A DNA stretch of 64,000 bases from a virus. A program made the position numbers and the translations under genes. The notes under the pieces are model-generated. The model had not been told where the DNA came from. It was given only the letters and a program-made list of their open reading frames with translations, and did no database searches. Shown one piece after another: positions 20,034 to 64,000 of the stretch. How positions within the stretch are numbered: the first letter of the stretch is position 1; each line of letters opens with the position of its first letter. The stretch spans positions 8,894 through 72,893 of IMG/VR virus record IMGVR_UViG_3300037247_001118; one strand, 5' to 3'.

Positions 20034-20256
20034 CTTCAACACCTACGTCGATGACCGCCCCGGCACGGTGGCCGACAAGGACGCGATCAAGACAGGGGGC
20101 GCTACTCTCGCCCGTGCTGCTGTGGCTGAGGCGGTAGCCCACGCCAACAAGCACCTGAACGCCGTGATGGGCGACAACCCCGCCGACCTAGAGATGACAG
20201 GGCGGGTCTTCATGCTGCAACGCTACTTGGACTCAGTGGAGGCTTCTGATGGTTAG
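20014..20256 (+). CDS. Hypothetical protein (paralogue of 20391..20678)
   Basis: 80 aa; N-terminus [11 protein letters not shown]. Confidence 0.55.
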   Translation: MLQSLADFNTYVDDRPGTVADKDAIKTGGATLARAAVAEAVAHANKHLNAVMGDNPADLEMTGRVFMLQRYLDSVEASDG

Positions 20257-20398
20257 GCTCCTGTGGCACAGGCACTTCGGTCATGGAAAGCGCCGACTCA
20301 CGCCAGGTATAGATGATGGCTGGGGTAAGCCCAGGAACGCTTGGCCCCTCTGTCTCTGTGGAGTGGAACTCAAGTGGGAGCTGATGTCTAATGGCTAG
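20249..20398 (+). CDS. Small hypothetical protein (MVRLLWHRHF...)
   Basis: 49-aa ORF with GGAGG RBS, overlapping both neighbours. Confidence 0.4.
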   Translation: MVRLLWHRHFGHGKRRLTPGIDDGWGKPRNAWPLCLCGVELKWELMSNG

Positions 20399-20678
20399 TC
20401 CGGGCCTCGCCGCCTTCGACGCCTACGTGGACACCCGCTCGGCCACGAAAGCCGCCAAGGCGGCCCTGAAGGCCCGTGGCGAGCAACTGTACCTCGATGT
20501 CTACCGCGAACTGCCTGACCTTCTGGACAAGCTGGGCGATGCAGATGTTGCGGCGAACATTGGCGACGTTGACCTCGCCACCCGGCAGACGTTGTTCAAA
20601 GGCTGGTGGGCTGAGATGCGGGCTGAGGACGGCATGATCCAGCAGGATATCATCGACCGCTTAGAGGGCAAAGTCTGA
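20391..20678 (+). CDS. Hypothetical protein (paralogue of 20014..20256)
   Basis: 95 aa; N-terminus LAAFDAYVDTR. Confidence 0.6.
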   Translation: MASPGLAAFDAYVDTRSATKAAKAALKARGEQLYLDVYRELPDLLDKLGDADVAANIGDVDLATRQTLFKGWWAEMRAEDGMIQQDIIDRLEGKV

Positions 20679-25143: not shown

Positions 25144-27560
25144 CCCTCCGCTTCGACCCAGCCTGTACGCGGTGCCTGCTCTCTGCGTGCCCACGCTCGG
25201 CTGGCGCACACGTCTGCGTCCCCGGCATGGGCGCTGTCCCGTCCGGCATCCTGGCCTACGGTGAGGCGCCAGGGGCCAAGGAGGAACAGGATGGACTTCC
25301 CTTCCAGGGGAACGCCGGTGGGCTGCTGGACGAGATTCTCGGCATGGCCGGCATGACGCGCAGCGATCTCTACATCGGCAACGTAGCGCGGTGCCGGCCT
25401 CCGGGGAACCGCAATCCCAGCACCGACGAGTTGGAAGCCTGTCGGCTCTACACGTCGCGGGAGCTTGAGGCGGTCCAGCCGAAGGTGATCGTCTCACTCG
25501 GTGGCGTGCCGCTGAAGGCACTCACCGGCAAGACAGCCATCGGCGAGAACCGGGGCAAGCTGCTCCCGCTGCTGCCCGCCTACCGCTCGAACGTCCGCGT
25601 CATCCCATCCTACCACCCGGCGTCGATCCTGCACCAGCCGTCGATCCGCGCCGTGCGGATGCAGCAGATCGCCGACGACCTGAAGCTGGCCAAGAAGTTC
25701 ACGACCGGCGGCGTGTGGGACGCGACGATAGTGATCAACCCCGCGAAGGTGCCGAAGGCGCTCGACCTGCTACAGCGCTGCGACCGCCTAGCCTGCGATC
25801 TCGAATGGGAGGTGTTCCCGGGACGGAAGACGACCTGGCCCTGGTCGCGGCAGGATGGAGGCGCGCCGCGGCTGGTGAGCTATGGCCTCGCGGGGCGTGT
25901 GGACGGGCGGCTGCTGGCGTGCTCGTTTGACGCCGCCGACACTCCCGATCTTGTCAAGGAGATGCTGGCACGGATACCCACTATCTACCACAACGCTGTC
26001 GCCGACGTAATCTGGCTGCTCTCTCGTGGCATCCACCCGATCATCGCTGGCGACACCTGGATTCGCGCCTTCCTCCTGAACATCCAGTCGTCGCTGAGCC
26101 TCAAGGCGCTCGCACCGACGCTGACCTCGGTCCCCGCCGGCTGGGGCGACGAGATGGGAGACCTGCTCGGGAAAGTGCCGGAGACGCCCGAGGAGTGGCA
26201 GCAGACCAAGGAGTACAACGCCAAGGACGCGGTGGCCACGTTCTTGCTTGACGAGGAGCTTGAGACGCGCTCGGAGGGGAAGCCGTTCATGCCCCTGTAC
26301 CGTGAGGTCCTGCTGCCAGCCGCTCTGCGCCTGTCGGAGGCCAGCCTCGCCGGCGTCCCGTTCGACACCAAGCGGCTGCACGAGCTGGCGGAGGCGGCGA
26401 AGGGGCGCATCGAGACGCTGACCGCACGGATCCGTGACACGGTGGGGAGTTCGCGGCAATCAGATATCGCTCACGCCGTCGAGCGCGTTGCGGGAATTAT
26501 GCTACCACGGACGGAGAAGACGCAGCAGCCCTCAATAGCCGAGGAGGCGCTGTTGCCGTACCGGGATCGGCATCCGTTAGTGAAGGACATACTCACCGCC
26601 GGCAAGCTCAAGAAACTGGACGGGACGTATCTGCGCCCGTGGGGGCAGTCGCTTGCGGAACAGGGCGACCACCGGCTCCATACCCTCTACCGCCTTGCCG
26701 GGCCACGCACCGGGCGGACGGCGGCTGAGCAGGAGCAGGGCGGTACAGTCCAGCAGTACCCCCGCTGGCAGCCGCTGAGGGAGTGTGTCAAGGTACCAGA
26801 CGGCTGGAAGCTGATCTCCGCCGATCAATCAATGATAGAGATGCGTATTGCGGCTTGGATAGCACAAGACCAGCAGCTACTCGCATTCTTTCAGGAAGGG
26901 CGCGATGTCCACGTCTGTACTGCCTCATGGATCAGAGCTCTTGCGGCTGGCTGCTCGCTGGCCGAGTGGAAGCGAGATATGGATGCGTGGATGGCCAAGG
27001 TGACAGCCGCCGATAGGTACGCAGCGAAGGCGCCCAACTTCGGCTTCCTTTTCGGGCTACGCGAGGAGGGATTCATCAAGCAGGCACTGAAGAAGTACGG
27101 CATCACCTTCACGATGGACACCGCTGCTCAGGCACGGGCTGGCTACTTTGAGCTGTACGCCGACCTTCTGTCCTGGCACGAGGACTCGTGGAAGTGGGTA
27201 CACCTGGGCTACGTGGACACTGCCACGGGGCGGCGGCGGATGCTCGGCGGCGAGGACGAGAACGCGCTGCACCGGAAGGCGATCAACACTCCGATCCAGG
27301 GACCGGCGTCGGACCTCTCAATTGCAGGTGGCGTCAAGGCCTGCCAGCGACTTGAGGACGAGGGGCTACTGGGAGACTCCGTGCTCTACCTCGGCTTCAT
27401 TCACGACGACAACCTCTTTATGGCCAAGGACGCGGCCGTGCCGGGAGCCGTCGAGATCATCGAGCACGAGATGGAGCACCCCGGCCTGGACCGCATTGGC
27501 ATGGGCGACTTCGACGTGCCGCTGGTGGTCAAAGCTAAGGTCGGACAGACGTGGAGTTGA
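25140..27560 (+). CDS. polA: Uracil-DNA glycosylase (family 4-like) fused to a family A DNA polymerase
   Basis: CTRC, GEAPG, CRPPGNR, YHPA; exonuclease motifs DLE, HN..D, YNAKD; polymerase motifs ADQSMIEMR, KAPNFG, IHDD. Confidence 0.92.
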   Translation: MTLRFDPACTRCLLSACPRSAGAHVCVPGMGAVPSGILAYGEAPGAKEEQDGLPFQGNAGGLLDEILGMAGMTRSDLYIGNVARCRPPGNRNPSTDELEACRLYTSRELEAVQPKVIVSLGGVPLKALTGKTAIGENRGKLLPLLPAYRSNVRVIPSYHPASILHQPSIRAVRMQQIADDLKLAKKFTTGGVWDATIVINPAKVPKALDLLQRCDRLACDLEWEVFPGRKTTWPWSRQDGGAPRLVSYGLAGRVDGRLLACSFDAADTPDLVKEMLARIPTIYHNAVADVIWLLSRGIHPIIAGDTWIRAFLLNIQSSLSLKALAPTLTSVPAGWGDEMGDLLGKVPETPEEWQQTKEYNAKDAVATFLLDEELETRSEGKPFMPLYREVLLPAALRLSEASLAGVPFDTKRLHELAEAAKGRIETLTARIRDTVGSSRQSDIAHAVERVAGIMLPRTEKTQQPSIAEEALLPYRDRHPLVKDILTAGKLKKLDGTYLRPWGQSLAEQGDHRLHTLYRLAGPRTGRTAAEQEQGGTVQQYPRWQPLRECVKVPDGWKLISADQSMIEMRIAAWIAQDQQLLAFFQEGRDVHVCTASWIRALAAGCSLAEWKRDMDAWMAKVTAADRYAAKAPNFGFLFGLREEGFIKQALKKYGITFTMDTAAQARAGYFELYADLLSWHEDSWKWVHLGYVDTATGRRRMLGGEDENALHRKAINTPIQGPASDLSIAGGVKACQRLEDEGLLGDSVLYLGFIHDDNLFMAKDAAVPGAVEIIEHEMEHPGLDRIGMGDFDVPLVVKAKVGQTWS

Positions 27561-51465: not shown

Positions 51466-51671
51466 CCGCACTACGCCTACTCGTTGACCTGCTACTCATC
51501 GCCCCGCGGCTGGCGCTAGCCTGGCTCAAGACGAAACTGCCGAGCCGGCGCGTGATAATGCGCTCCCGACACTGTCTCTGGTGCGGGTGGAGCTTCTGGT
51601 GGGAACCGGGGGCGCCGGTCGTATGTGCTGGCTGCCGAGACGAGCAGGAACGGGTAAAGGAGGACGCATGA
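51462..51671 (+). CDS. Small Zn-ribbon protein
   Basis: CLWC...CAGC; ATGA overlap. Confidence 0.5.
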   Translation: MTALRLLVDLLLIAPRLALAWLKTKLPSRRVIMRSRHCLWCGWSFWWEPGAPVVCAGCRDEQERVKEDA

Positions 51672-51966
51672 ACCCACTACGCCGACTCGCACTCTGGGTG
51701 TTCTGGAATGTCCCCCTGCCCGACTCGCTGGCACCGCACGTGCTGGGCTTCGCGTTGGGGAGTAGGGCGCGGAGGGTGCGAGAGGAGGACTAGATTGCGA
51801 TTTTCAAATTACGGCTACGACCGACCTAAGCATTGTCGGAGTTTCTGGCGCTGGCTTTTCTGGTGTTGGCAATGGAGCTCCCTGCCTCCGGGGCGGACTG
51901 GGTGGGGACTTAGGATTTTCGGGTACTGGCTCAGCGTTAGCTGGAGGTCATAGTCCTAGCCATCTG

Positions 51967-51975
51967 TGCTATAAT
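51967..51975 (+). promoter_or_regulatory. Extended -10 promoter
   Basis: TGCTATAAT before AAGGAGG and ATG 52002. Confidence 0.55.
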
Positions 51976-52001
51976 GCCCCCATAGGACAAGGAGGCACCA
52001 C

Positions 52002-52136
52002 ATGCCGCAGAAGACGCAGACCCCCACCAGGACGCCGACGCGTACCGAGCCGGCGATTGACCCCGACCCGTACTACAACCCGGAGCGGCTCTGCCCATCG
52101 CAGCGCGAGGACGCGGAACGGCGCAGCAGGCCGTAG
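52002..52136 (+). CDS. 44-aa Pro/Thr-rich peptide
   Basis: MPQKTQTPTRTPTRTEPAIDPDPYYNPERLCPSQREDAERRSRP; AAGGAGG RBS. Confidence 0.55.
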   Translation: MPQKTQTPTRTPTRTEPAIDPDPYYNPERLCPSQREDAERRSRP

Positions 52137-52320
52137 TATGCTGGCCATCGGTCGCAAATATGGAGTGCGAGTAGACCGCTTTGTTGGCTGGTGGGCGGCA
52201 CTCGGCATCCACATCCACTTCTGGCCACCACACAAGGCACACCTAGACCTGCACCTGCTGCATTTGCTGATCACGTTCGGCCGACACTATGCTGGGCCGA
52301 GAGAACATTAGGACTCCACA

Positions 52321-53070: not shown

Positions 53071-53474
53071 GCGGCGACGGCCGGCAATTCCTCCACCTGC
53101 GGCTGACGCTGCAACACTGCGCGGGGCTGCGCGAGGCGATCAGTCCCCTGGAGCCATGTGCGCTAGAGCAGTCGCAGATCGTCAACTTCTGCGCTCGGCT
53201 CTACATTGCCTACTACGCGCTGGAGGCGGATCCTGACCTTGAGGTGGTTCCCTTCCCAGCGGATCACGCCGACATCATGCTCATCAACAACTTCCTCTCA
53301 GCGGAGGAGGGCGACTGGGCCAAGGACCTGCTGCACCAAACGCGCCAGGTGCTCTTCGAGCTGCACACTGGCAAGGAGGCGGTCAAGCTCGCGTCGTCTG
53401 AGGACACGCACGCGCTCTTCCAAGATGTGGCGCTTGAGGGTGACAATCCGCCGGCGGTAGACGAGAAGCTGTGA
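53067..53474 (+). CDS. Hypothetical protein upstream of terL
   Basis: ATGA overlap; GGAGG RBS. Confidence 0.65.
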   Translation: MSGDGRQFLHLRLTLQHCAGLREAISPLEPCALEQSQIVNFCARLYIAYYALEADPDLEVVPFPADHADIMLINNFLSAEEGDWAKDLLHQTRQVLFELHTGKEAVKLASSEDTHALFQDVALEGDNPPAVDEKL

Positions 53475-54991
53475 CCACTACCCCTGATCGGGCGGAGCAA
53501 CTGCGCCAGGCTCGGCGGGAACTTGATCTCCTAGACGCTAAGGAGGATGCTGCGGCGTCCTTCCGCGCGTTCCTGCCTTACTGGCACTTCAAGAACCGTG
53601 AGACTGGCGTTGTCAAGACCTTCCTGCCGTGCCTCCACGCCGACCCCAACCACCAGAAGCACGAGGCCGAACTCTGGGAAGGACAGGACGCCTTCGTTGA
53701 GGCGATGGCGCAGCACCCGCGGCTCTACGCGCTCAAGGCAGGTAAGCTCGGCTTTACTGAGCTTGAATGCGCCTTCGACGCGTGGGTAGCGCTGTTCCGA
53801 CAGGCCAACGCCCGGGTCCACGTCTTCTCTATGGGTGACCGCGCATCACAGGATGTTCTTACCTATATCCGCTTCGGCCTGACACACCTGCCGGCGTTCC
53901 TGCGCCCTACGCTGTTGGCACGGCCCACACAGGTGACGCAGGATGTCAAGACACGTGGGGACACGATGCACCAGCTCTCGTTTGAGGGGACGGCTGCGCC
54001 TGACGACGTCCGCATCATCGCGTCCTACCCGGCCGGCGCCAACGTCTCGGTCGACCAGACCTGTCAGCACGCCCACGTCGACGAGATGGCGCGGATGCCG
54101 TTCCCCAAGCAGACGTGGCAGGCGGTTCACTCAACTATCGCACCCGGCGGCTCCTGCCACATCGTTACCCGAGGCGCCGGTGAGGATAACTACGCCGCGG
54201 AGCTCTGGCAGCAGATCGAGGACGGCTCCGGCGAGATGTTCCCCTTCTTCCAGCCGTACACAGCACGCCCCGGGCGGGATGCCGCATGGCGTGCAGAAGT
54301 GTCGAAGCCGATGACGACGCAGGGCATCGCCCACTTCGCACCCGAGACGGTGGCCGACGCGCTGGCCGGCGACGAGCAATCGTCGTTCATTCCCGAGCAG
54401 CTCTATGACGCCTGCCTGGAGGAGCTGCCGTCCTTCGCGCCTGAGAAGGTGGGGCTGGCGGGGACCAAGGAGCCCGTCGTGCTCGCCGCTGACGCTGGCG
54501 TATCCAACGACTGCTTCGGCATCGTAGCGGTGACGCGGCATCCGCATCCCTCGCGGCACGCCGACGTCGCCATCCGAGCCATACGGCTATGGGAGCCGCC
54601 CAAGGGCGGGCACATCGACTTCGCGGAGCCGGAGAAGTTCATCCGGGAGGCCTGTCGTCTCTACAATGTCGTGCAGCTTGCCTACGACCCTTACCAGCTC
54701 GAGTCCATGATGCAGAACCTCACGCGCGACGCGGTGGTCTGGTGCGAGCCATTCAATCAGGGGAAGGACCGCCTGATCGCCGACTCGGAGCTCCGAGACC
54801 TCATCGTCAACCGCCGGCTGGCGCACGACGGCAACCGGTCGCTGCGCGAGCACTTCCTCAACGCGGCCGCTAAGCTCCAGGCGAAGGAGGACTCGCAGAT
54901 CCGCATCGTCAAGAAGGCGCCGCACCGGAAGGTGGACCTGGCGGTGGCGACGAGCATGGCTTGCAATCGCTGCCTGTATCTGCTACTATGA
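53471..54991 (+). CDS. terL: Terminase large subunit
   Basis: LKAGKLGFT, HVDEMA, nuclease motifs AADAG, AYDPYQ, KVDLAVA. Confidence 0.9.
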   Translation: MTTTPDRAEQLRQARRELDLLDAKEDAAASFRAFLPYWHFKNRETGVVKTFLPCLHADPNHQKHEAELWEGQDAFVEAMAQHPRLYALKAGKLGFTELECAFDAWVALFRQANARVHVFSMGDRASQDVLTYIRFGLTHLPAFLRPTLLARPTQVTQDVKTRGDTMHQLSFEGTAAPDDVRIIASYPAGANVSVDQTCQHAHVDEMARMPFPKQTWQAVHSTIAPGGSCHIVTRGAGEDNYAAELWQQIEDGSGEMFPFFQPYTARPGRDAAWRAEVSKPMTTQGIAHFAPETVADALAGDEQSSFIPEQLYDACLEELPSFAPEKVGLAGTKEPVVLAADAGVSNDCFGIVAVTRHPHPSRHADVAIRAIRLWEPPKGGHIDFAEPEKFIREACRLYNVVQLAYDPYQLESMMQNLTRDAVVWCEPFNQGKDRLIADSELRDLIVNRRLAHDGNRSLREHFLNAAAKLQAKEDSQIRIVKKAPHRKVDLAVATSMACNRCLYLLL

Positions 54992-58127: not shown

Positions 58128-59441
58128 ATGCAGAACACCATCCCTCCGGAAGCCTGGGAAGAGGTCAAGCGCCTACTCGCCGAGGGGCTCAATCCGCGGC
58201 AGGTGGCGGAGATCGTCAAGCCTAAGTATGGTGGCCCGGCTCGGCCCACAATTGGGCACTACATCGCAGAGCACCCTGAGCTTCGCAAGATATCCCCCGA
58301 CGACGTAGCACAGGCCAAGGAAGTGACGCCTCCGCCCGGTCCGGCGCAGTGGGACGAGGCGGAGTGGGGCCGACGGTCGACGGCGTTCCTGGACGACTAC
58401 GTGCCACTGCCACAGGTGCCCACACACATCGCGGCGGTGCGGAAGGAGGAGATGGGCTTCGACACCGTGCAGAAGGCCATCTCGCTCTTCTCCGACCTTC
58501 ACCGCGGATCCGAGATCGACATACGTGTGTCCGGCGGCCTGGCCGAATACTCGACCGAGATTGCCCGGCGCCGCCTGACCCGCTGGCGGGACACGCTACT
58601 GCGCTTTACGCAGATGAACCAGCTTGCCGTCACCGTCAACGATCTGGTGATGTTCGCTCTCGGGGATGACCTTGAGGGCCACGGCAAGATGTTCGGCACA
58701 CAAGCATTCCAGATGGACCAGACCGCCTTCTTCCAGTACATGGGCTTCGTCATGGACATGGAGGAGATCATCCTGTCGCTCTTAGCCCGGTTCGAGACGG
58801 TGACAATCTTCAAAGTGTACGGCAACCACGGGCGCATCGCTACGGGTTGGAAGGACTGGTATGGGCCCGACAATATGGAGCTGATGGCCTGGGAGCATAT
58901 CGGGGACCGCCTCCGCGCTAGCGTCGGTGGGGAATGGTCGTGGTCGAAGAATGGAGCCCACCTGCTGACCGGCGGCCGTGTCAATCTCTGCATCAGCCGG
59001 TCCTGGTTCGTGATGGTAGACATCGACGGCTGGCTCTTCTATGGTCGGCACGGTCACGGGATCGGTGATCTGCGCAGAACCTACACCGGGGCATTTGACA
59101 ACAAACTCCGCATGAACTCCATCGTGGGGCGCGTCATCAACTACATGGTCAAGGCACACCTGCATGAGGCGCAATCGGCGGAGTCTGAGATCGCTGGCAG
59201 TATCATCCAGAACGGGTGCTTCTCTGGCCCGTCGCTGCAAGTCTTGGAGCGGAACGCGGCGGCTGCTACGCTCCCGTCGCAGGAGTTCTACCTCCTGCAC
59301 CCGAAATACGGGCTGACTCACCACCACCGCATCCACCTAGCGACGGCCGACGAGCTGCGCCAGTTCGAGATCTTCCAGGCAGGGGACGGGGAGCTGATGA
59401 CGCCGGAGCGGGGGCTACCGCCCGGGGAGGACGCACCATGA
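58128..59441 (+). CDS. HTH + calcineurin-like metallophosphoesterase
   Basis: FSDLH, LGDDLEG, YGNHG, HGH, AHLH. Confidence 0.85.
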   Translation: MQNTIPPEAWEEVKRLLAEGLNPRQVAEIVKPKYGGPARPTIGHYIAEHPELRKISPDDVAQAKEVTPPPGPAQWDEAEWGRRSTAFLDDYVPLPQVPTHIAAVRKEEMGFDTVQKAISLFSDLHRGSEIDIRVSGGLAEYSTEIARRRLTRWRDTLLRFTQMNQLAVTVNDLVMFALGDDLEGHGKMFGTQAFQMDQTAFFQYMGFVMDMEEIILSLLARFETVTIFKVYGNHGRIATGWKDWYGPDNMELMAWEHIGDRLRASVGGEWSWSKNGAHLLTGGRVNLCISRSWFVMVDIDGWLFYGRHGHGIGDLRRTYTGAFDNKLRMNSIVGRVINYMVKAHLHEAQSAESEIAGSIIQNGCFSGPSLQVLERNAAAATLPSQEFYLLHPKYGLTHHHRIHLATADELRQFEIFQAGDGELMTPERGLPPGEDAP

Positions 59442-60022
59442 GCCGACCAACAACAGTACGCAAGCACCTGACCGACCACAGCGCGGCGGCAGTTATGCGG
59501 TGGCACAACACGCTGACGCTGAAGACCGAGTCGATAGCGGAGCACCAGTTCTTCGTCGCCGAGTCCGCGTCGCTGATCTGCCAACTGCTCAAGCACTACG
59601 GGATTGCCGAGCCCAACGAGCTCGACGCCGTGACGATGGCGCGGATGCATGACAAGGCGGAGACGGAGGTCGGTGACATCGTCGGCAAGGCGAAGCGGCA
59701 GTACAGCGACCTGGCGACAGCAGCTCGGCAGGCAGAGATAGCCGCCGTCCTTCACCACATATTCGAGGGGCTGCCACAGGCTGTGGCAAAGCACTACCAG
59801 AATCTGATGTGCCGTGCGCTGCTCCCGTCCAAGGTCGAGACCGACCTAGAAGCCCAGATCGTCCTCTACTGCGACCGCCTAGCGGCCTACACCTTCGCCT
59901 GCCAGGAGACGCACCTGGGCAACTCCGGGTTGAAGCGACTGGTCGATGCGTGCTACCAGGAGCTCCAGGAGCTGGCCTGGCCGTGGCTGGTAGAGCTACG
60001 CAAGGCGGCGGACGTGATCTAG
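59438..60022 (+). CDS. HD-domain 5'-deoxynucleotidase (YfbR-like)
   Basis: VMRW...ESIAEH.F...MHD.AE..VGDI...K, CDRL. Confidence 0.85.
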   Translation: MSRPTTVRKHLTDHSAAAVMRWHNTLTLKTESIAEHQFFVAESASLICQLLKHYGIAEPNELDAVTMARMHDKAETEVGDIVGKAKRQYSDLATAARQAEIAAVLHHIFEGLPQAVAKHYQNLMCRALLPSKVETDLEAQIVLYCDRLAAYTFACQETHLGNSGLKRLVDACYQELQELAWPWLVELRKAADVI

Positions 60023-60046
60023 GCCTCTGGCTCCGGGCCTCTCTGC

Positions 60047-60075
60047 TTGACACCTACCTGGAACTATGTTACCCT
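60047..60075 (+). promoter_or_regulatory. Promoter for putative small RNA 1
   Basis: TTGACA-17-TACCCT with extended TG. Confidence 0.6.
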
Positions 60076-60081
60076 AGTAAC

Positions 60082-60213
60082 AGTCGCCGGTGGGGTGCGC
60101 TTTGACACCCCTGATGGAGTAGCTGCAATACTATTCGCCCGACTTTATGACCTCCTCAGTCGTTTCGATGGCTGAGAGCGAAGAGCCGCCAACTCGAATC
60201 CGGCGGCTTTTCC
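60082..60213 (+). ncRNA. Putative structured small RNA 1
   Basis: Three-way junction (AGTCG/CGACT, GGGGTG/CACCCC, GAGTAG/CTATTC), UUCG hairpin at 60155-60176, terminator GCCGCC/GGCGGC-TTTT; no credible ORF. Confidence 0.55.
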
Positions 60214-60215
60214 AT

Positions 60216-60244
60216 TTGACAATGCGGCGGCGGTGCGCTATCGT
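60216..60244 (+). promoter_or_regulatory. Promoter for putative small RNA 2
   Basis: TTGACA-17-TATCGT. Confidence 0.6.
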
Positions 60245-60250
60245 GAACAC

Positions 60251-60436
60251 GAAGGTTTGAGCCGTTGATCCGGTCTAGCTAACCGGGGAGGCTCGCCTTC
60301 ACGCCACCCCAGGAGTGGTCGCAAGGCAACCCTGGGTTAACGGGGTGACCACTGGCGGGACCCCCTGTTGCTGACCGCCCCAGTCGTTTCGATGGCTGAG
60401 CGCGAAAAGCCCCCACTGCGGTCCGGGGGCGTTTCT
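60251..60436 (+). ncRNA. Putative structured small RNA 2
   Basis: Hairpin GAAGG-GAGCC-CCGGT/ACCGG-GGCTC-CCTTC, hairpin CCCAGG..GCAA..CCTGGG, the same UUCG hairpin as RNA 1, and a terminator-like GCCCCC/GGGGGC stem. Confidence 0.55.
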
Positions 60437-60450
60437 ATCTCCCGCACCGC

Positions 60451-60479
60451 TTGACATCACTAGCCTGCCGCCGTATGCT
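60451..60479 (+). promoter_or_regulatory. Promoter for the portal operon
   Basis: TTGACA-17-TATGCT. Confidence 0.7.
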
Positions 60480-60516
60480 GAATGGGGTAATGATGCCTGT
60501 AGGAGGGTGAGCAGCC

Positions 60517-62727
60517 GTGCCCCGAAAGAAGAAGTCCCCCGACCAGACGCCGAAGGCCGCGGCATCCGTCGCCGGCGAGAAGCAGGTCGATCCGAAGACC
60601 ATCGAGAAGTCGGTTATTGAGACTCCCGAGTCGTCGGGGAAGGCGCCCTCGCCGTCACTCGACTCCTCACTGCTGTGGATGGTGGCGCAGGCAGGCGATG
60701 AGATTAGCCCGTGGGGGCTGCGGCCCAAGGTGCGCGACCGGCAGCTCCGCGACTTCTACCCCACAGAGTCGCTCTTCTCCTCCGCCCTAGGTGTGGTCAC
60801 CTCGCGTAACGCTGGCTTCAAGTGGACCATCGAAGGCTCGCCGCGCGTAGCGGCTCGCGTCCACCAGATCCTGGAGGACGCCGACAGCGGCCGGGGCTGG
60901 GTCAGCTTCATCTCGAAGCTCTCGGTGGACCTCTACACTCAGGACTACGGCGCCTTCATCGAGATCGTCCGCGAAGGCAACTCGCCGGAGGGCGCCCTGC
61001 TCGGCATCAACCCGCTCGACGCGGCGCGATGCTGGCCCACAGGCGACCCCGAGAAGCCTGTCATCTACGAAGATATCAAGGGCCAGTTTCACGAGCTCGA
61101 CTGGTGGAGCGTGGTGCAACTATTGGAGCTGCCGACGCCGCGCGAGCGGTCGTATGGCCTACAGGTATGTGCACTCTCGCGGTTGCTGCTCGCAGCGCAG
61201 ATCATGAAGAACATTGCCATCTACACGAAGGAGAAGACGGGCGGACGCAACGCGCAGTCGATACACCTCATTGCCGGTATCACCAATTCTCAGATCCAGG
61301 ACGCGCTGAGCCAGGTCAAGGGCGAGGCGGATGCGAAGGGCCTCCTACGGTTCCTCGGCCCGCTCCTTGTAGGCAGCGTAGATCCCAAAGCCAACATCGA
61401 TGTCAAGACCGTAGAGCTGACATCGCTTCCCGACAACTTCAATGCGGAGGTCGTCAACAAGATCTATGTCTCGCAGATGGCGATGGCGTTCTTCGCCGAC
61501 TACCAGGACTTCGCGCCGCTGCCCGGCGGTGGCCTCGGGACCTCGGCGCAGAGCGAGATGCTGCACCAGAAGGCGCGCGGCAAGGGCTCGGCCGTCTTCC
61601 GGAAGCTGATAGTCCAGGCGATGAACTATCGCATCTTGCCTTGCGTCACCGAGTTCCAGTTTGAGGAGCAGGACCCCGACGCCGATGAGCAGCAGGCGCG
61701 GATCAAGCTGCTCCGGGCCCAGGAGCGCGCGGCGCGCATTGTGTCCGGTGAGTTGTCGGAGGACGAGGCCAGGCAGTTGGCGATGGACGACGGCGACCTG
61801 CCCGAGGAACTCTTCGAGGCGGGCGGCGCAGAGGACGCGACAGACGAGCACAAGCTCCCGTCTGGGGAGAAGCCCGAGATGCCTGATGCGTCGGAGCATA
61901 CTGAAGAGGAGGGCGAGCAGCCGGAGGAGGGTGCGAAGGGTGAGCTAGAGGTCTCTCCACCCAGCGTCCCTTTTTCCTTCGTCGAGGCAGCGCTTGGGAG
62001 TAAGGAGCGCGCTGGCCCGTTCGAGGCTGATCGCAACAAGGCAGAGCGCAAGCTAAGGCTGGCGGTCGAGAAGGCCTTCCGCCGTATCTTCACCAACATC
62101 AAGAAGCGTCTGAGGCGCGAGAGCCGCAAGGAGGCTGCCTTCAAGGGTCGCTCCGATGTGCCCAACGACGAGGCGTTTTGGGGTGTGCAGAAGGCGGAGT
62201 TCATGAGTGCGCTAGGCGACCAGCCGCAAGAGCTCCTCCAGCAGGGCGTCCAGCAGGCGTCCGACCTAGGTCTCGCCGTCGGCTTCGATGTGGTCAACCA
62301 GCAGGTGCTCGATCTGTCGGCGACGTACACCGACCAATGGTGGGAGCAGCTCTCGGGCACGACACGGAGGCAAATGCGGACGGCGGTGCAGACCCACATC
62401 GAGGAGGGCACGCCGCTCAGGACGCTCGTCAAGGACCTGGAGCCGCTGTTCGGCAAGAAGCGCGCCAAGCTCATCGCGGCGACCGAGGTCACGCGGCTCT
62501 ATACAGAGGGCAACCGCGTGGCGTTTGAGGACTCCGGCGCTGTCGATCAGGTCAAGTGGCAGACCGTCAAGGACGCGGTCGTGGACCCGGACTGCGAAGC
62601 GTTGCAGGGGCAGCAGTGGCCGCTCGGGCAGAATCCCGTCTCGCCGCCGCTTCATCCCAATTGCCGCTGCTGGCTGGCGCCGGTGGTTGACGAGAAGCCG
62701 CTGACTCGTAAGGTGCAGGCGCCGTGA
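60517..62727 (+). CDS. Portal protein fused to a MuF/SPP1 gp7-like head morphogenesis domain
   Basis: N-terminal portal-like region (DLYTQDYGAFIEI); acidic linker; RAKLIAATEVTR...W.T..D...C...PPLHPNCRC. Confidence 0.8.
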   Translation: MPRKKKSPDQTPKAAASVAGEKQVDPKTIEKSVIETPESSGKAPSPSLDSSLLWMVAQAGDEISPWGLRPKVRDRQLRDFYPTESLFSSALGVVTSRNAGFKWTIEGSPRVAARVHQILEDADSGRGWVSFISKLSVDLYTQDYGAFIEIVREGNSPEGALLGINPLDAARCWPTGDPEKPVIYEDIKGQFHELDWWSVVQLLELPTPRERSYGLQVCALSRLLLAAQIMKNIAIYTKEKTGGRNAQSIHLIAGITNSQIQDALSQVKGEADAKGLLRFLGPLLVGSVDPKANIDVKTVELTSLPDNFNAEVVNKIYVSQMAMAFFADYQDFAPLPGGGLGTSAQSEMLHQKARGKGSAVFRKLIVQAMNYRILPCVTEFQFEEQDPDADEQQARIKLLRAQERAARIVSGELSEDEARQLAMDDGDLPEELFEAGGAEDATDEHKLPSGEKPEMPDASEHTEEEGEQPEEGAKGELEVSPPSVPFSFVEAALGSKERAGPFEADRNKAERKLRLAVEKAFRRIFTNIKKRLRRESRKEAAFKGRSDVPNDEAFWGVQKAEFMSALGDQPQELLQQGVQQASDLGLAVGFDVVNQQVLDLSATYTDQWWEQLSGTTRRQMRTAVQTHIEEGTPLRTLVKDLEPLFGKKRAKLIAATEVTRLYTEGNRVAFEDSGAVDQVKWQTVKDAVVDPDCEALQGQQWPLGQNPVSPPLHPNCRCWLAPVVDEKPLTRKVQAP

Positions 62728-63268: not shown

Positions 63269-64000
63269 ATGCCGTACACTGGCCACGACGATCCCAAGTT
63301 GCCGCCCCGCATCAAGGCGATGCCCATCGCTGCGCGGCGGAAGTTTGTCAAAGTCTTCAACGCGTTCTTCAAGAACTGCCGCAGCCCCAAGATCGGGGGT
63401 GTCGGCTCTGTGGAGAAGTGCGAGGGCGCGGCCATGAAGGTCGCCAACTCGGCGGTGAAGACGAAGGAGGTATACATGGACCCAACCGACGAGTCCGTTA
63501 CGCCTGCGCCCGATGACGAGTCCACGGAGGATGGCGAGAAGTGCAGCGACGCGGCGCCGATGTATGAGAAGCCTGTCTACTTCGGCGGGGCGATCAGCTT
63601 CGATGACGTTGACACGTACCGCGAGGCGCAGAACTTTGACCAGAACATCGAAAGCCAGAAATGGACCTTCGACGAAATCTTCCGCAACATCATGGCACAG
63701 GACACGGAAGACGTGTCGCTGGAGCAGAAGCTCTCACAGGTCAAGTCCGCCGTCGATGAGTTCGCCACCCGGTCGGAGGACCCGCCCGAGCACTGCAAGG
63801 AGGCCGGCGGCCTGGTCGGCAGGGCGGTCGACGCTGCCAAGCGCCTACTTAGCGGCGACAAGGATGCCGCGCCTGAGCGTATCGGCTACGCCGAGTTCGG
63901 TGACGGCGGCAGCTTCGTCATCACGCGGGACAAGGAGACGGGCGCCCTGCGGTGGACGGCCTTCGTTACCAACAAGTTCAAGGACCGCGACGGAGAGATA
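63269..64000 (+). CDS. ChaB-like domain fused to a putative prohead protease (truncated by the window end)
   Basis: MPY....LPPRIKAMP..ARRKFVKVFN; frame open to the window end at RWTAFVTNKFKDRDGEI. Confidence 0.65.
   Translation, partial: MPYTGHDDPKLPPRIKAMPIAARRKFVKVFNAFFKNCRSPKIGGVGSVEKCEGAAMKVANSAVKTKEVYMDPTDESVTPAPDDESTEDGEKCSDAAPMYEKPVYFGGAISFDDVDTYREAQNFDQNIESQKWTFDEIFRNIMAQDTEDVSLEQKLSQVKSAVDEFATRSEDPPEHCKEAGGLVGRAVDAAKRLLSGDKDAAPERIGYAEFGDGGSFVITRDKETGALRWTAFVTNKFKDRDGEI

Follow-up and report, generated by a model that had tools for sequence, protein, structure and literature searches.

In an uncultivated marine-sediment phage, the 494-nt gap (60023-60516) that separates an HD/YfbR-like gene (59216-60022) from a portal-MuF gene holds two tandem RNA units which share a core of approximately 45 nt and probably constitute a new phage RNA family. 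The analyzed stretch, in the following the window, comprises 64,000 nt, i.e., the last 64 kb of the 72,893-nt IMG/VR virus record IMGVR_UViG_3300037247_001118; positions without further specification refer to it. We tentatively read the units as a pair of independently transcribed sibling small RNAs (sRNAs), which would act in trans via the conserved core, and assign to this reading a probability of roughly 40%. The evidence consists of the architecture of both units, the conservation of the core in unrelated phages, the covariation of the terminator stem, and the lack of a coding signal.

In the window, the pattern TTGACA-N16-18-TAnnnT has 12 occurrences, where 0.25 were expected and 100 shuffles gave two at most; 11 of the 12 lie on the plus strand. 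Three of them, at 60047 (P1), 60216 (P2) and 60451 (P3), fall into the gap and reveal sigma-70-type -35 and -10 elements at 16-18-nt spacing by sequence pattern; the original prediction had announced three such promoters, with 17-nt spacers, in a gap of about 490 nt. A stricter consensus scan picks up P2 and P3 only, because the -10 element of P1, TACCCT, is weak; a TG one base before this element is compatible with an extended -10. Between P3 and the portal gene, which starts with GTG at 60517, lie a short leader and the ribosome-binding site AGGAGGG (60501-60507). Strong GGAGGAG sites are found in the leaders of the early promoters of this phage. Six of the 12 promoters (21917, 37171, 46740, 49308, 50293, and 56339) carry a GATTAA/GTTAAT-centered near-palindrome in the spacer, e.g., CATGATTAAACATG, which is missing from the three gap promoters and from those at 27557 and 63197. 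This near-palindrome looks like an operator for a phage repressor and would split the promoters into two classes.

The first two promoters are each followed by a different 5' part and then by a common repeat module. Positions 60148-60191 and 60372-60415 are 89% identical over 44 nt, identity over 79 aligned columns amounts to 87%, and the 20-mer CAGTCGTTTCGATGGCTGAG is exact in both copies (0.00 expected by chance), which bears out the shared repeat of about 65 nt described beforehand. The UUCG-loop hairpin that had been seen in both copies pairs 60155-60163 with 60168-60176 in copy 1 and 60381-60387 with 60392-60398 in copy 2. Downstream of it, a GC-rich stem-loop followed by a U run is found in either copy (GCCGCC/GGCGGC-UUUU and GCCCCC/GGGGGC-GUUUCU), and the compensatory change claimed for this second stem is real: the pair G60188-C60204 of copy 1 is C-G in copy 2. 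Both units share one layout, namely a folded 5' domain, a pyrimidine-rich single strand of 9-12 nt, the UUCG hairpin, a linker of 3-4 nt, and a terminator hairpin. The two G.U pairs of the hairpin would read as A.C mismatches on the minus strand; with these pairs kept and the plus strand folding better than the minus strand, the RNA signal is strand-specific.

RNA1 folds at -52.1 kcal/mol (z -3.05; minus strand z -1.74), and none of 200 shuffles is as good. Its fold consists of a two-hairpin 5' domain, an unpaired UUUAUGACCUC tract, the 9-bp UUCG hairpin, three free bases, and the terminator hairpin, and module 1 alone (73 nt) reaches z -4.01. For RNA2 the corresponding value is -1.76 (minus strand -0.96); its minimum-energy fold loses the UUCG hairpin, and module 2 folded alone forms it. 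The expectation that both RNAs begin with a folded 5' domain therefore holds in part: RNA1, module 1 and domain A alone (z -2.68) fold better than their shuffles, whereas RNA2 as a whole, domain X alone (z -1.21) and domain B alone (z 0.01) do not do so significantly. A similar qualification applies to the anti-Shine-Dalgarno sequence ACCTCCT (60150-60156), which copy 1 was said to expose: five of its seven bases are unpaired in the minimum-energy fold, but the remaining two lie in a stem. Table 1 collects the features.

Table 1. Features of the gap and its downstream gene. The ends of RNA1 and RNA2 are predicted, the start from the -10 element and the end from the terminator.
Feature	Position	Strand	Description
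Promoter P1	60047..60075	+	TTGACA, 17-nt spacer, TACCCT; TG one base 5' of the -10
RNA1 (predicted), ~137 nt	60082..60218	+	domain X (60082-60146), single-stranded tract, UUCG hairpin, terminator
Pyrimidine-rich single-stranded linker of RNA1	60143..60154	+	CUUUAUGACCUC; unpaired in minimum-energy and centroid folds; overlaps ACCUCCU 60150-60156
Conserved hairpin, copy 1	60155..60176	+	9 bp including two G.U pairs, UUCG loop
Putative intrinsic terminator T1	60180..60218	+	GAAGAGCCGCC/GGCGGCUUUUC stem, 11-nt loop, U-rich tail entering the P2 -35
Promoter P2	60216..60244	+	TTGACA, 17-nt spacer, TATCGT; found by pattern and stricter scans
RNA2 (predicted), ~191 nt	60250..60440	+	domain A (~60251-60303), domain B (~60303-60370), module
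Conserved hairpin, copy 2	60379..60400	+	core 60381-60398; C.A mismatch at 60380/60399
Putative intrinsic terminator T2	60404..60441	+	GAAAAGCCCCC/GGGGGCGUUUC stem, U-rich tail
Promoter P3	60451..60479	+	TTGACA, 17-nt spacer, TATGCT; found by pattern and stricter scans
Portal-MuF fusion gene	60517..62727	+	first gene of the structural block; Pfam PF04233; PHROG portal and head-morphogenesis matches

The same core occurs in phages without detectable relationship to the window phage. Scanning metagenomes with the exact 20-mer gave two hits, the 2,009-nt contig L006 and L005, the latter being the same Anaerolineaceae coding region as L007. In L006, seven of the ten bases upstream of the match agree with copy 2, and a TGnTATAAT promoter precedes the match by about 30 nt. 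Scanning IMG/VR with the 18-mer yielded three hits, one inside a coding sequence (L091) and two (L090 and L092) whose whole records, L095 and L096, have 47% G+C and are 70-89% identical to each other; a wobble-degenerate 19-mer gave five hits, L090 and L092 again and three apparently coding ones. A model built from the two window copies alone recovers all three contigs, L095 with an E-value of 2.7e-7, L096 with 2e-6, and L006 with 2e-5. By tblastx, no protein similarity was detected between L006, L095 or L096, which are small fragments, and the window phage, nor between L006 and L095/L096. Across the five sequences, which represent three lineages and range from 47 to 62% G+C, the 18-nt hairpin is identical including the UUCG loop and both G.U pairs, and the core alignment reads U.AC(C/A)NCC(U/C)-CAGUCGUUUCGAUGGCUGA-(G/C)..GCGRAR. 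L095 and L096 fold like RNA1 (z -4.43 and -3.91): two hairpins at the 5' end precede an unpaired CUUUACAUCC and the UUCG hairpin, which four free bases separate from the terminator.

Covariation in homologues, which had been proposed as a check on the family, is present in the terminator. In the alignment fitted to the structure model, six of its 11 pairs (four sequences) are changed on both sides, four never vary, and 97.7% of the cells are paired. For the UUCG hairpin (nine pairs, five sequences), seven pairs never vary, none is changed on both sides, and 91.1% of the cells are paired. The overall covariation score of 0.225 compares with 0.098 in shuffles, of which 0 of 500 reach it, while controls with slid partner columns stay at or below 0.08.

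The genomic settings of the core differ among the lineages. L095 and L096 carry ParB-like, TerS and TerL genes, and their RNA follows a block of divergently oriented small genes. In L096 (1620-1960, minus strand), a tRNA-Asn(GUU) begins 5 nt after the terminator hairpin of the RNA, followed by a Dps-like gene and structural genes; since the tRNA is so close and the U run of the terminator weak, the RNA is probably co-transcribed with the downstream genes. Upstream of the L096 RNA, a T-arm-like CAGAG-UUCGAUU-CUUUG is present without a tRNA call by ARAGORN, and AAACCTAACAAAACTTTAAT occurs twice downstream of the tRNA-Asn. The L006 unit extends from the TGnTATAAT promoter to a hairpin with UUUU and places the conserved core near the RNA 5' end. 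A tail-fiber-like open reading frame (ORF) lies upstream, and at the contig end a minus-strand ORF, the C-terminus of an 84-amino-acid predicted protein, faces the module unit, which by this arrangement does not look like a leader. Directly before the L006 module RNA, positions 1585-1695 encode a two-hairpin RNA with the loops CACCUCCU and CCUACCUCC (CCUCC; z -2.92), which stays below threshold for ar14 (25.2 bits vs 58.8) and CcsR1 (18.9 vs 65.3). Its form points to a putative cuckoo-like anti-Shine-Dalgarno sRNA in a phage-like contig.

Sequencing data from close relatives elucidate how the units vary. Four DNA runs (marine, sediment, and cold-seep) aligned to 59800-60800 at a likeness of at least 80%. 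In these runs, contigs are present for the end of the HD gene, module copy 1 with P2, 60244-60303 (domain A), 60303-60429 (domain B and module 2) and the portal gene, and absent for 60072-60139 (the RNA1 5' domain) and 60446-60479 (P3). In all four runs, the 5' part joined to the module upstream of the portal gene is domain A by itself, domain B by itself, or another short sequence. Domain A may run straight into the module (60303 to 60147), a promoter may precede domain B with the module (60053 to 60303), 35 other letters may stand between the P1 -10 and the module (60077 to 60150), and module 2 may pass into the GCCGCC/GGCGGC terminator stem with new loops (60411 to 60202). From these joints, the 5' domains appear to be exchanged like cassettes. 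One relative's contig shows, at a loose end, a TTGACA after the module terminator as well. At least two of the variants listed are well supported: G-to-T at 60377 makes ACCTCC the common form, and the T, present in most of the relatives' contigs, would give copy 2 a CCUCC too; A-to-G at 60399, found in many of these contigs, replaces the basal C.A mismatch of hairpin 2 by a C-G pair, the counterpart of U-A in copy 1. Moreover, the contigs contain indels of 1-2 nt in the terminator loop. A variable 5' part attached to a constant 3' module, as first described, is therefore seen in the window and in its relatives' contigs, but L006 with its core near the 5' end departs from this order.

In other portal relatives, the units were not found. 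L004, the one sequence-accessible close relative, of 38 kb whose portal is 89% identical, has a different gene upstream of the portal gene and a single TTGACA promoter with a structured leader of about 150 nt running into the portal ribosome-binding site; the module was not found in this 38-kb record. Two direct repeats TACAGCTnGGTACGG lie just upstream of the L004 promoter before the portal gene (2780-2830) and may be an activator site. Among 80 IMG/VR loci with portals 36-89% identical to that of the window, BLAST found no match to the gap, and no hit to the covariance model R1 had an E-value below 0.9. The distance from the previous ORF to the portal gene is 115 nt or less in 62 of the 73 loci examined, and four of the 73 show a TTGAC(A/T)-type promoter within 700 nt of the portal. 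Since no locus of the 80 matches the module and 62 of 73 lack a sizeable gap, the RNA units of the window are a narrow-lineage feature at this place.

The original prediction of an uncharacterized RNA family agrees with our searches: the gap is free of Rfam matches and tRNAs, and homologues of the core exist in three contigs. The protein-binding handle that the prediction also named, with a role as decoy, antitoxin, guide or packaging-associated RNA, is to be read as conjecture. An Rfam 15 cmscan of 59000-61500 with E-values up to 10 gave two weak hits, both outside the gap, and none to ar14 or CcsR; in L090, L092 and L006 the Rfam scan found a tRNA and the sub-threshold ar14/CcsR1 beside the module and nothing on it. 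ARAGORN predicts no tRNA gene in the window, and the gap contains no RF00005 hit. In the phage GenBank collection, there was no match to 59000-62000, and the gap as query gave one spurious 30-nt hit. IMG/VR returned no hits for the exact 20-mer, for two variant patterns, or for a domain-B 20-mer. Among GTDB representative genomes the exact 20-mer has three single hits, all in coding sequence and none in a CRISPR array. The 18-mer, with up to one mismatch, occurs in seven of 401 sampled Alphaproteobacteria genomes, in no case with the module flanks, so that the hairpin does not copy a host RNA in the sampled genomes. Word searches of the literature found no paper on this RNA.

Several other identities were considered and rejected. 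An RNA anti-CRISPR is a solitary mimic of a CRISPR repeat, and the GTDB hits are single, coding, and outside arrays. A template/variable repeat pair of a diversity-generating retroelement does not fit, as the copy differences are not adenine-specific and no reverse transcriptase is among the scanned proteins; an attP site was discarded because the window protein scan reveals no integrase, and a pac or cos site because TerL lies 5.5 kb upstream. Two further gaps, 20034-20677 and 51466-52320, were considered as RNA loci and appear to hold small ORFs instead.

According to our preferred reading, the two small-RNA genes would be siblings that arose by duplication, each with its own sigma-70-type promoter and intrinsic terminator, while P3 would serve the portal gene. 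Discrete RNAs of about 137 and 191 nt would be released and act in trans. That the promoters fire and that transcription ends at T1 and T2, as well as everything stated here about a target, is what we infer from the sequence. The working part would be the conserved core, i.e., a C/U-rich single strand and a hairpin. The single strand may pair with purine-rich, Shine-Dalgarno-like mRNA sites or dock on a host factor that is conserved; protection of the 3' end would fall to the rigid hairpin and the terminator, which may also bind a protein, and the interchangeable 5' domains would tune stability or specificity. That the hairpin stays invariant in phages differing widely in base composition is better accounted for by a sequence-specific partner which their hosts have in common.

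A number of points weigh against trans-acting sRNAs. Antisense targets in the phage's own genome do not exceed chance level (complementarity of at most 11-12 nt, best E 0.64), and no RNA run is among the listed sequencing runs that contain the stretch. The letters CCUCC are present in only one of the five sequences, namely window copy 1; L095 and L096 have UCCUC, window copy 2 CCGCC, and L006 CCACC. This leaves the anti-Shine-Dalgarno idea a weak one. The UUCG hairpin shows no covariation, with most of its pairs never varying, and a simple seed-pairing model fails to explain this invariance. The pair counts derive from only five sequences, and their alignment, having been fitted to the structure model, is biased toward structure. 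The evidence from close relatives comes from short contigs at a likeness of at least 80%, with variants taken from those listed, and the arrangement in L096 fits a cis-acting or a processed RNA equally well.

The strongest competitor, in our view an unlikely one, is a cis-acting gate on the late operon. Here, promoter, nut-like or put-like hairpin and terminator would form a unit in which a phage or host factor recognizing the hairpin causes read-through into the portal gene and the structural block of about 30 kb, and the short RNAs would be by-products like lambda 6S RNA. The location of the units at the border of nucleotide-metabolism genes and the portal gene suits such a gate, as does the conserved hairpin placed 3-4 nt before the terminator in four of the five sequences. 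L096 argues in the same direction, where the RNA heads tRNA-Asn, the Dps-like gene and the structural block and leaves no promoter room after the hairpin, and so does L004 with its single promoter and structured leader leading straight into the portal ribosome-binding site. The layout of promoter and terminator is present twice; however, P3, which has a consensus -35 and only a short leader, is located beyond both terminators and would bypass them; relatives likewise show TTGACA after the module. The L006 unit has no evident same-strand downstream gene within its contig, the far-end ORF being on the opposite strand. No Q-like or N-like factor, antiterminator gene or qut site turned up, in analyses that included no search aimed at antiterminators. 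Finally, a gate does not account for the retention of folded 5' domains and their exchange in the manner of cassettes.

Trans-acting sRNAs would have to be separated as well from a decoy or sponge, which we consider quite doubtful. Hairpin and flanks would bind a host nuclease, an RNA chaperone, a ribosomal or translation factor, or a defense protein, and the RNAs would titrate or recruit it. A hairpin identical in all five sequences, while the adjoining terminator keeps its pairing only, speaks for such a binding site, and lineages without a detectable shared protein in the DNA examined argue against a phage-encoded partner. Yet L006, L095 and L096 are small, so that a shared phage protein could lie outside them, and neither the coding single hits of the 20-mer in GTDB nor the flankless 18-mer hits in Alphaproteobacteria support a decoy. 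Still more speculative, and held by us at a low probability, is a broader form of these ideas: the 18-nt UUCG hairpin with its pyrimidine lead-in might be a universal handle into one host machine (ribosome, RNA polymerase, or RNase) and the swapped 5' domains its payloads, which would amount to a modular, programmable RNA system, e.g., of decoys or guides, across phages without detectable shared proteins.

Plain punctuation, in which the late block is shielded from upstream transcription by two terminators, the duplicated promoters contribute further late transcription, and the RNAs are functionless, is an improbable account. As all genes lie on the plus strand, a terminator before the late block is plausible, and the promoter-terminator overlap UUUUCCAUUUGACA is compact. 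But punctuation needs neither an invariant non-terminator hairpin common to unrelated phages nor conserved 5' domains. A packaging or portal-associated structural RNA in the manner of the phi29 packaging RNA (pRNA) would agree with units immediately preceding the portal gene, both in the window and in close relatives, and with a basic stretch in the translated N-terminus of the portal protein; we regard it as very improbable, as Rfam, which includes a pRNA family, has no match in the gap, no conserved loop-loop complementarity is seen while terminator loops vary freely, the RNA of L006, L095 and L096 is not beside a portal gene, and the portal relatives lack a sizeable gap in 62 of 73 cases and match the module in none of the 80. 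Small proteins of 37-45 amino acids from either strand of the gap are hardly credible: short ORFs do overlap the module on both strands, with a SAIETT minus-strand frame open in both window copies and L006, but there is no ribosome-binding site, the four copy differences within the 44-nt repeat all fall on codon position 2 of the only shared minus-strand frame and are thus all amino-acid changing, the identity is at the nucleotide level, the terminator loop has indels of 1-2 nt in relatives, and promoters and terminators are on the plus strand. By the same signs, the module is taken to be non-coding.

The genes of the window are nearly all encoded on the plus strand. Tail genes at 8.6-20 kb are followed by replication genes and several DNA methyltransferases at 21-47 kb, then by TerL (53471-54991), a dNMP kinase, an exonuclease (58128-59441), and the HD/YfbR-like gene. 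With the portal-MuF gene directly after the gap, the structural block begins right there. A weak hairpin at 60021-60040, just before P1, consists of AGGCCTCTGGCTCCGGGCCT and then CTCTGCTT; it overlaps the HD stop codon and contains GGCCTCT twice. The portal is fused to a MuF domain, and some homologues, including P0002 and P0006, are longer (918-1096 amino acids) and end with precomputed ADP-ribosyltransferase-type Pfam labels (PF01129 and PF03496). IMG/VR labels the record linear and 89% complete. Its ends, 653 nt each (1-653 vs 72241-72893 of the record, the latter being 63348-64000 of the window), are 73% identical without gaps, which points to either an assembly that is circularly permuted and was closed on a strain variant or a paralogous gene pair.

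In a 2025 review, about two dozen phage sRNAs are counted, almost all from cultured enterobacterial, staphylococcal, Pseudomonas, Vibrio, and cyanobacterial phages (PMC12197685). Our study adds a candidate RNA family from uncultivated sediment phages to the few characterized phage small RNAs. Its pattern is unusual, as a short core has not changed by a single base across phages of 47-62% G+C while the surroundings have all changed. Based on five sequences and the contig evidence, a new RNA motif with an unusual conservation pattern appears credible. If the core indeed binds a conserved host component, it would mark a weak spot of the hosts exploited by unrelated phages and offer a natural RNA handle of small size. 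Should it instead be a read-through switch, it would add, outside the lambdoid phages, a way of controlling late genes that needs no protein or depends on a host factor.

Among known systems, lambda 6S RNA is the short promoter-to-terminator transcript of PR'-tR', and StxS is a short PR'-tR' transcript before late genes which also acts in trans. As StxS combines both properties, cis and trans readings of our units need not exclude each other. The units resemble these RNAs as short promoter-to-terminator transcripts just before late genes and differ from them by two tandem units with a further promoter and by the L006 core, which is not before late genes. The put RNAs of HK022 are two copies of about 65-70 nt with two stem-loops each, located after promoters, and act on the host RNA polymerase without a phage protein. 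By this description, which is the basis of our comparison, they match the two two-stem-loop units downstream of promoters, and their protein independence would fit a conservation across unrelated phages; in contrast to put, the second stem-loop of our units is a canonical terminator with a U run. The species 1 and 2 RNAs of T4 are stable RNAs of unknown function in a phage tRNA cluster and are comparable, again by description only, to the small structured RNA before tRNA-Asn in L096, whereas the window phage has no tRNA genes according to ARAGORN. Unlike phi29-type pRNA, which pairs between molecules through its loops, associates with the portal and would have been indicated by an Rfam match, our units have non-conserved loops and do not lie beside a portal gene in the three unrelated contigs. 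StxS of Stx phages is also listed in Table 1 of the 2025 phage-sRNA review (PMC12197685).

With its unpaired pyrimidine tract beside a rigid hairpin and a terminator, the core resembles C-rich-region sRNAs and cuckoo RNAs, and its tandem arrangement recalls sibling sRNAs. For the former, RsaE/RoxS serve as comparators; for the latter, OmrA/OmrB and PrrF1/PrrF2 are tandem sibling sRNAs. The CcsR (cuckoo) RNAs of Alphaproteobacteria are four homologous sRNAs at one locus with pyrimidine anti-Shine-Dalgarno motifs; they consist of two hairpins, each with CCUCCUCCC in the loop, and mask Shine-Dalgarno sequences (PMC8034643). The setting is similar in L006, where the module RNA adjoins the cuckoo-like two-hairpin RNA. 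Different from cuckoo, CcsR and ar14 RNAs, the C/U tract of our RNAs, which is not CCUCCUCCC, occupies the linker together with the 5' stem arm, and their loop is UUCG; this places them outside these families. RNA1 and RNA2 differ from the known siblings in their completely different 5' domains and in being encoded by a phage rather than a bacterial chromosome; like OmrA/OmrB, PrrF1/PrrF2, and CcsR, they are specified by adjacent homologous putative sRNA genes with a conserved, presumably functional segment and a terminator.

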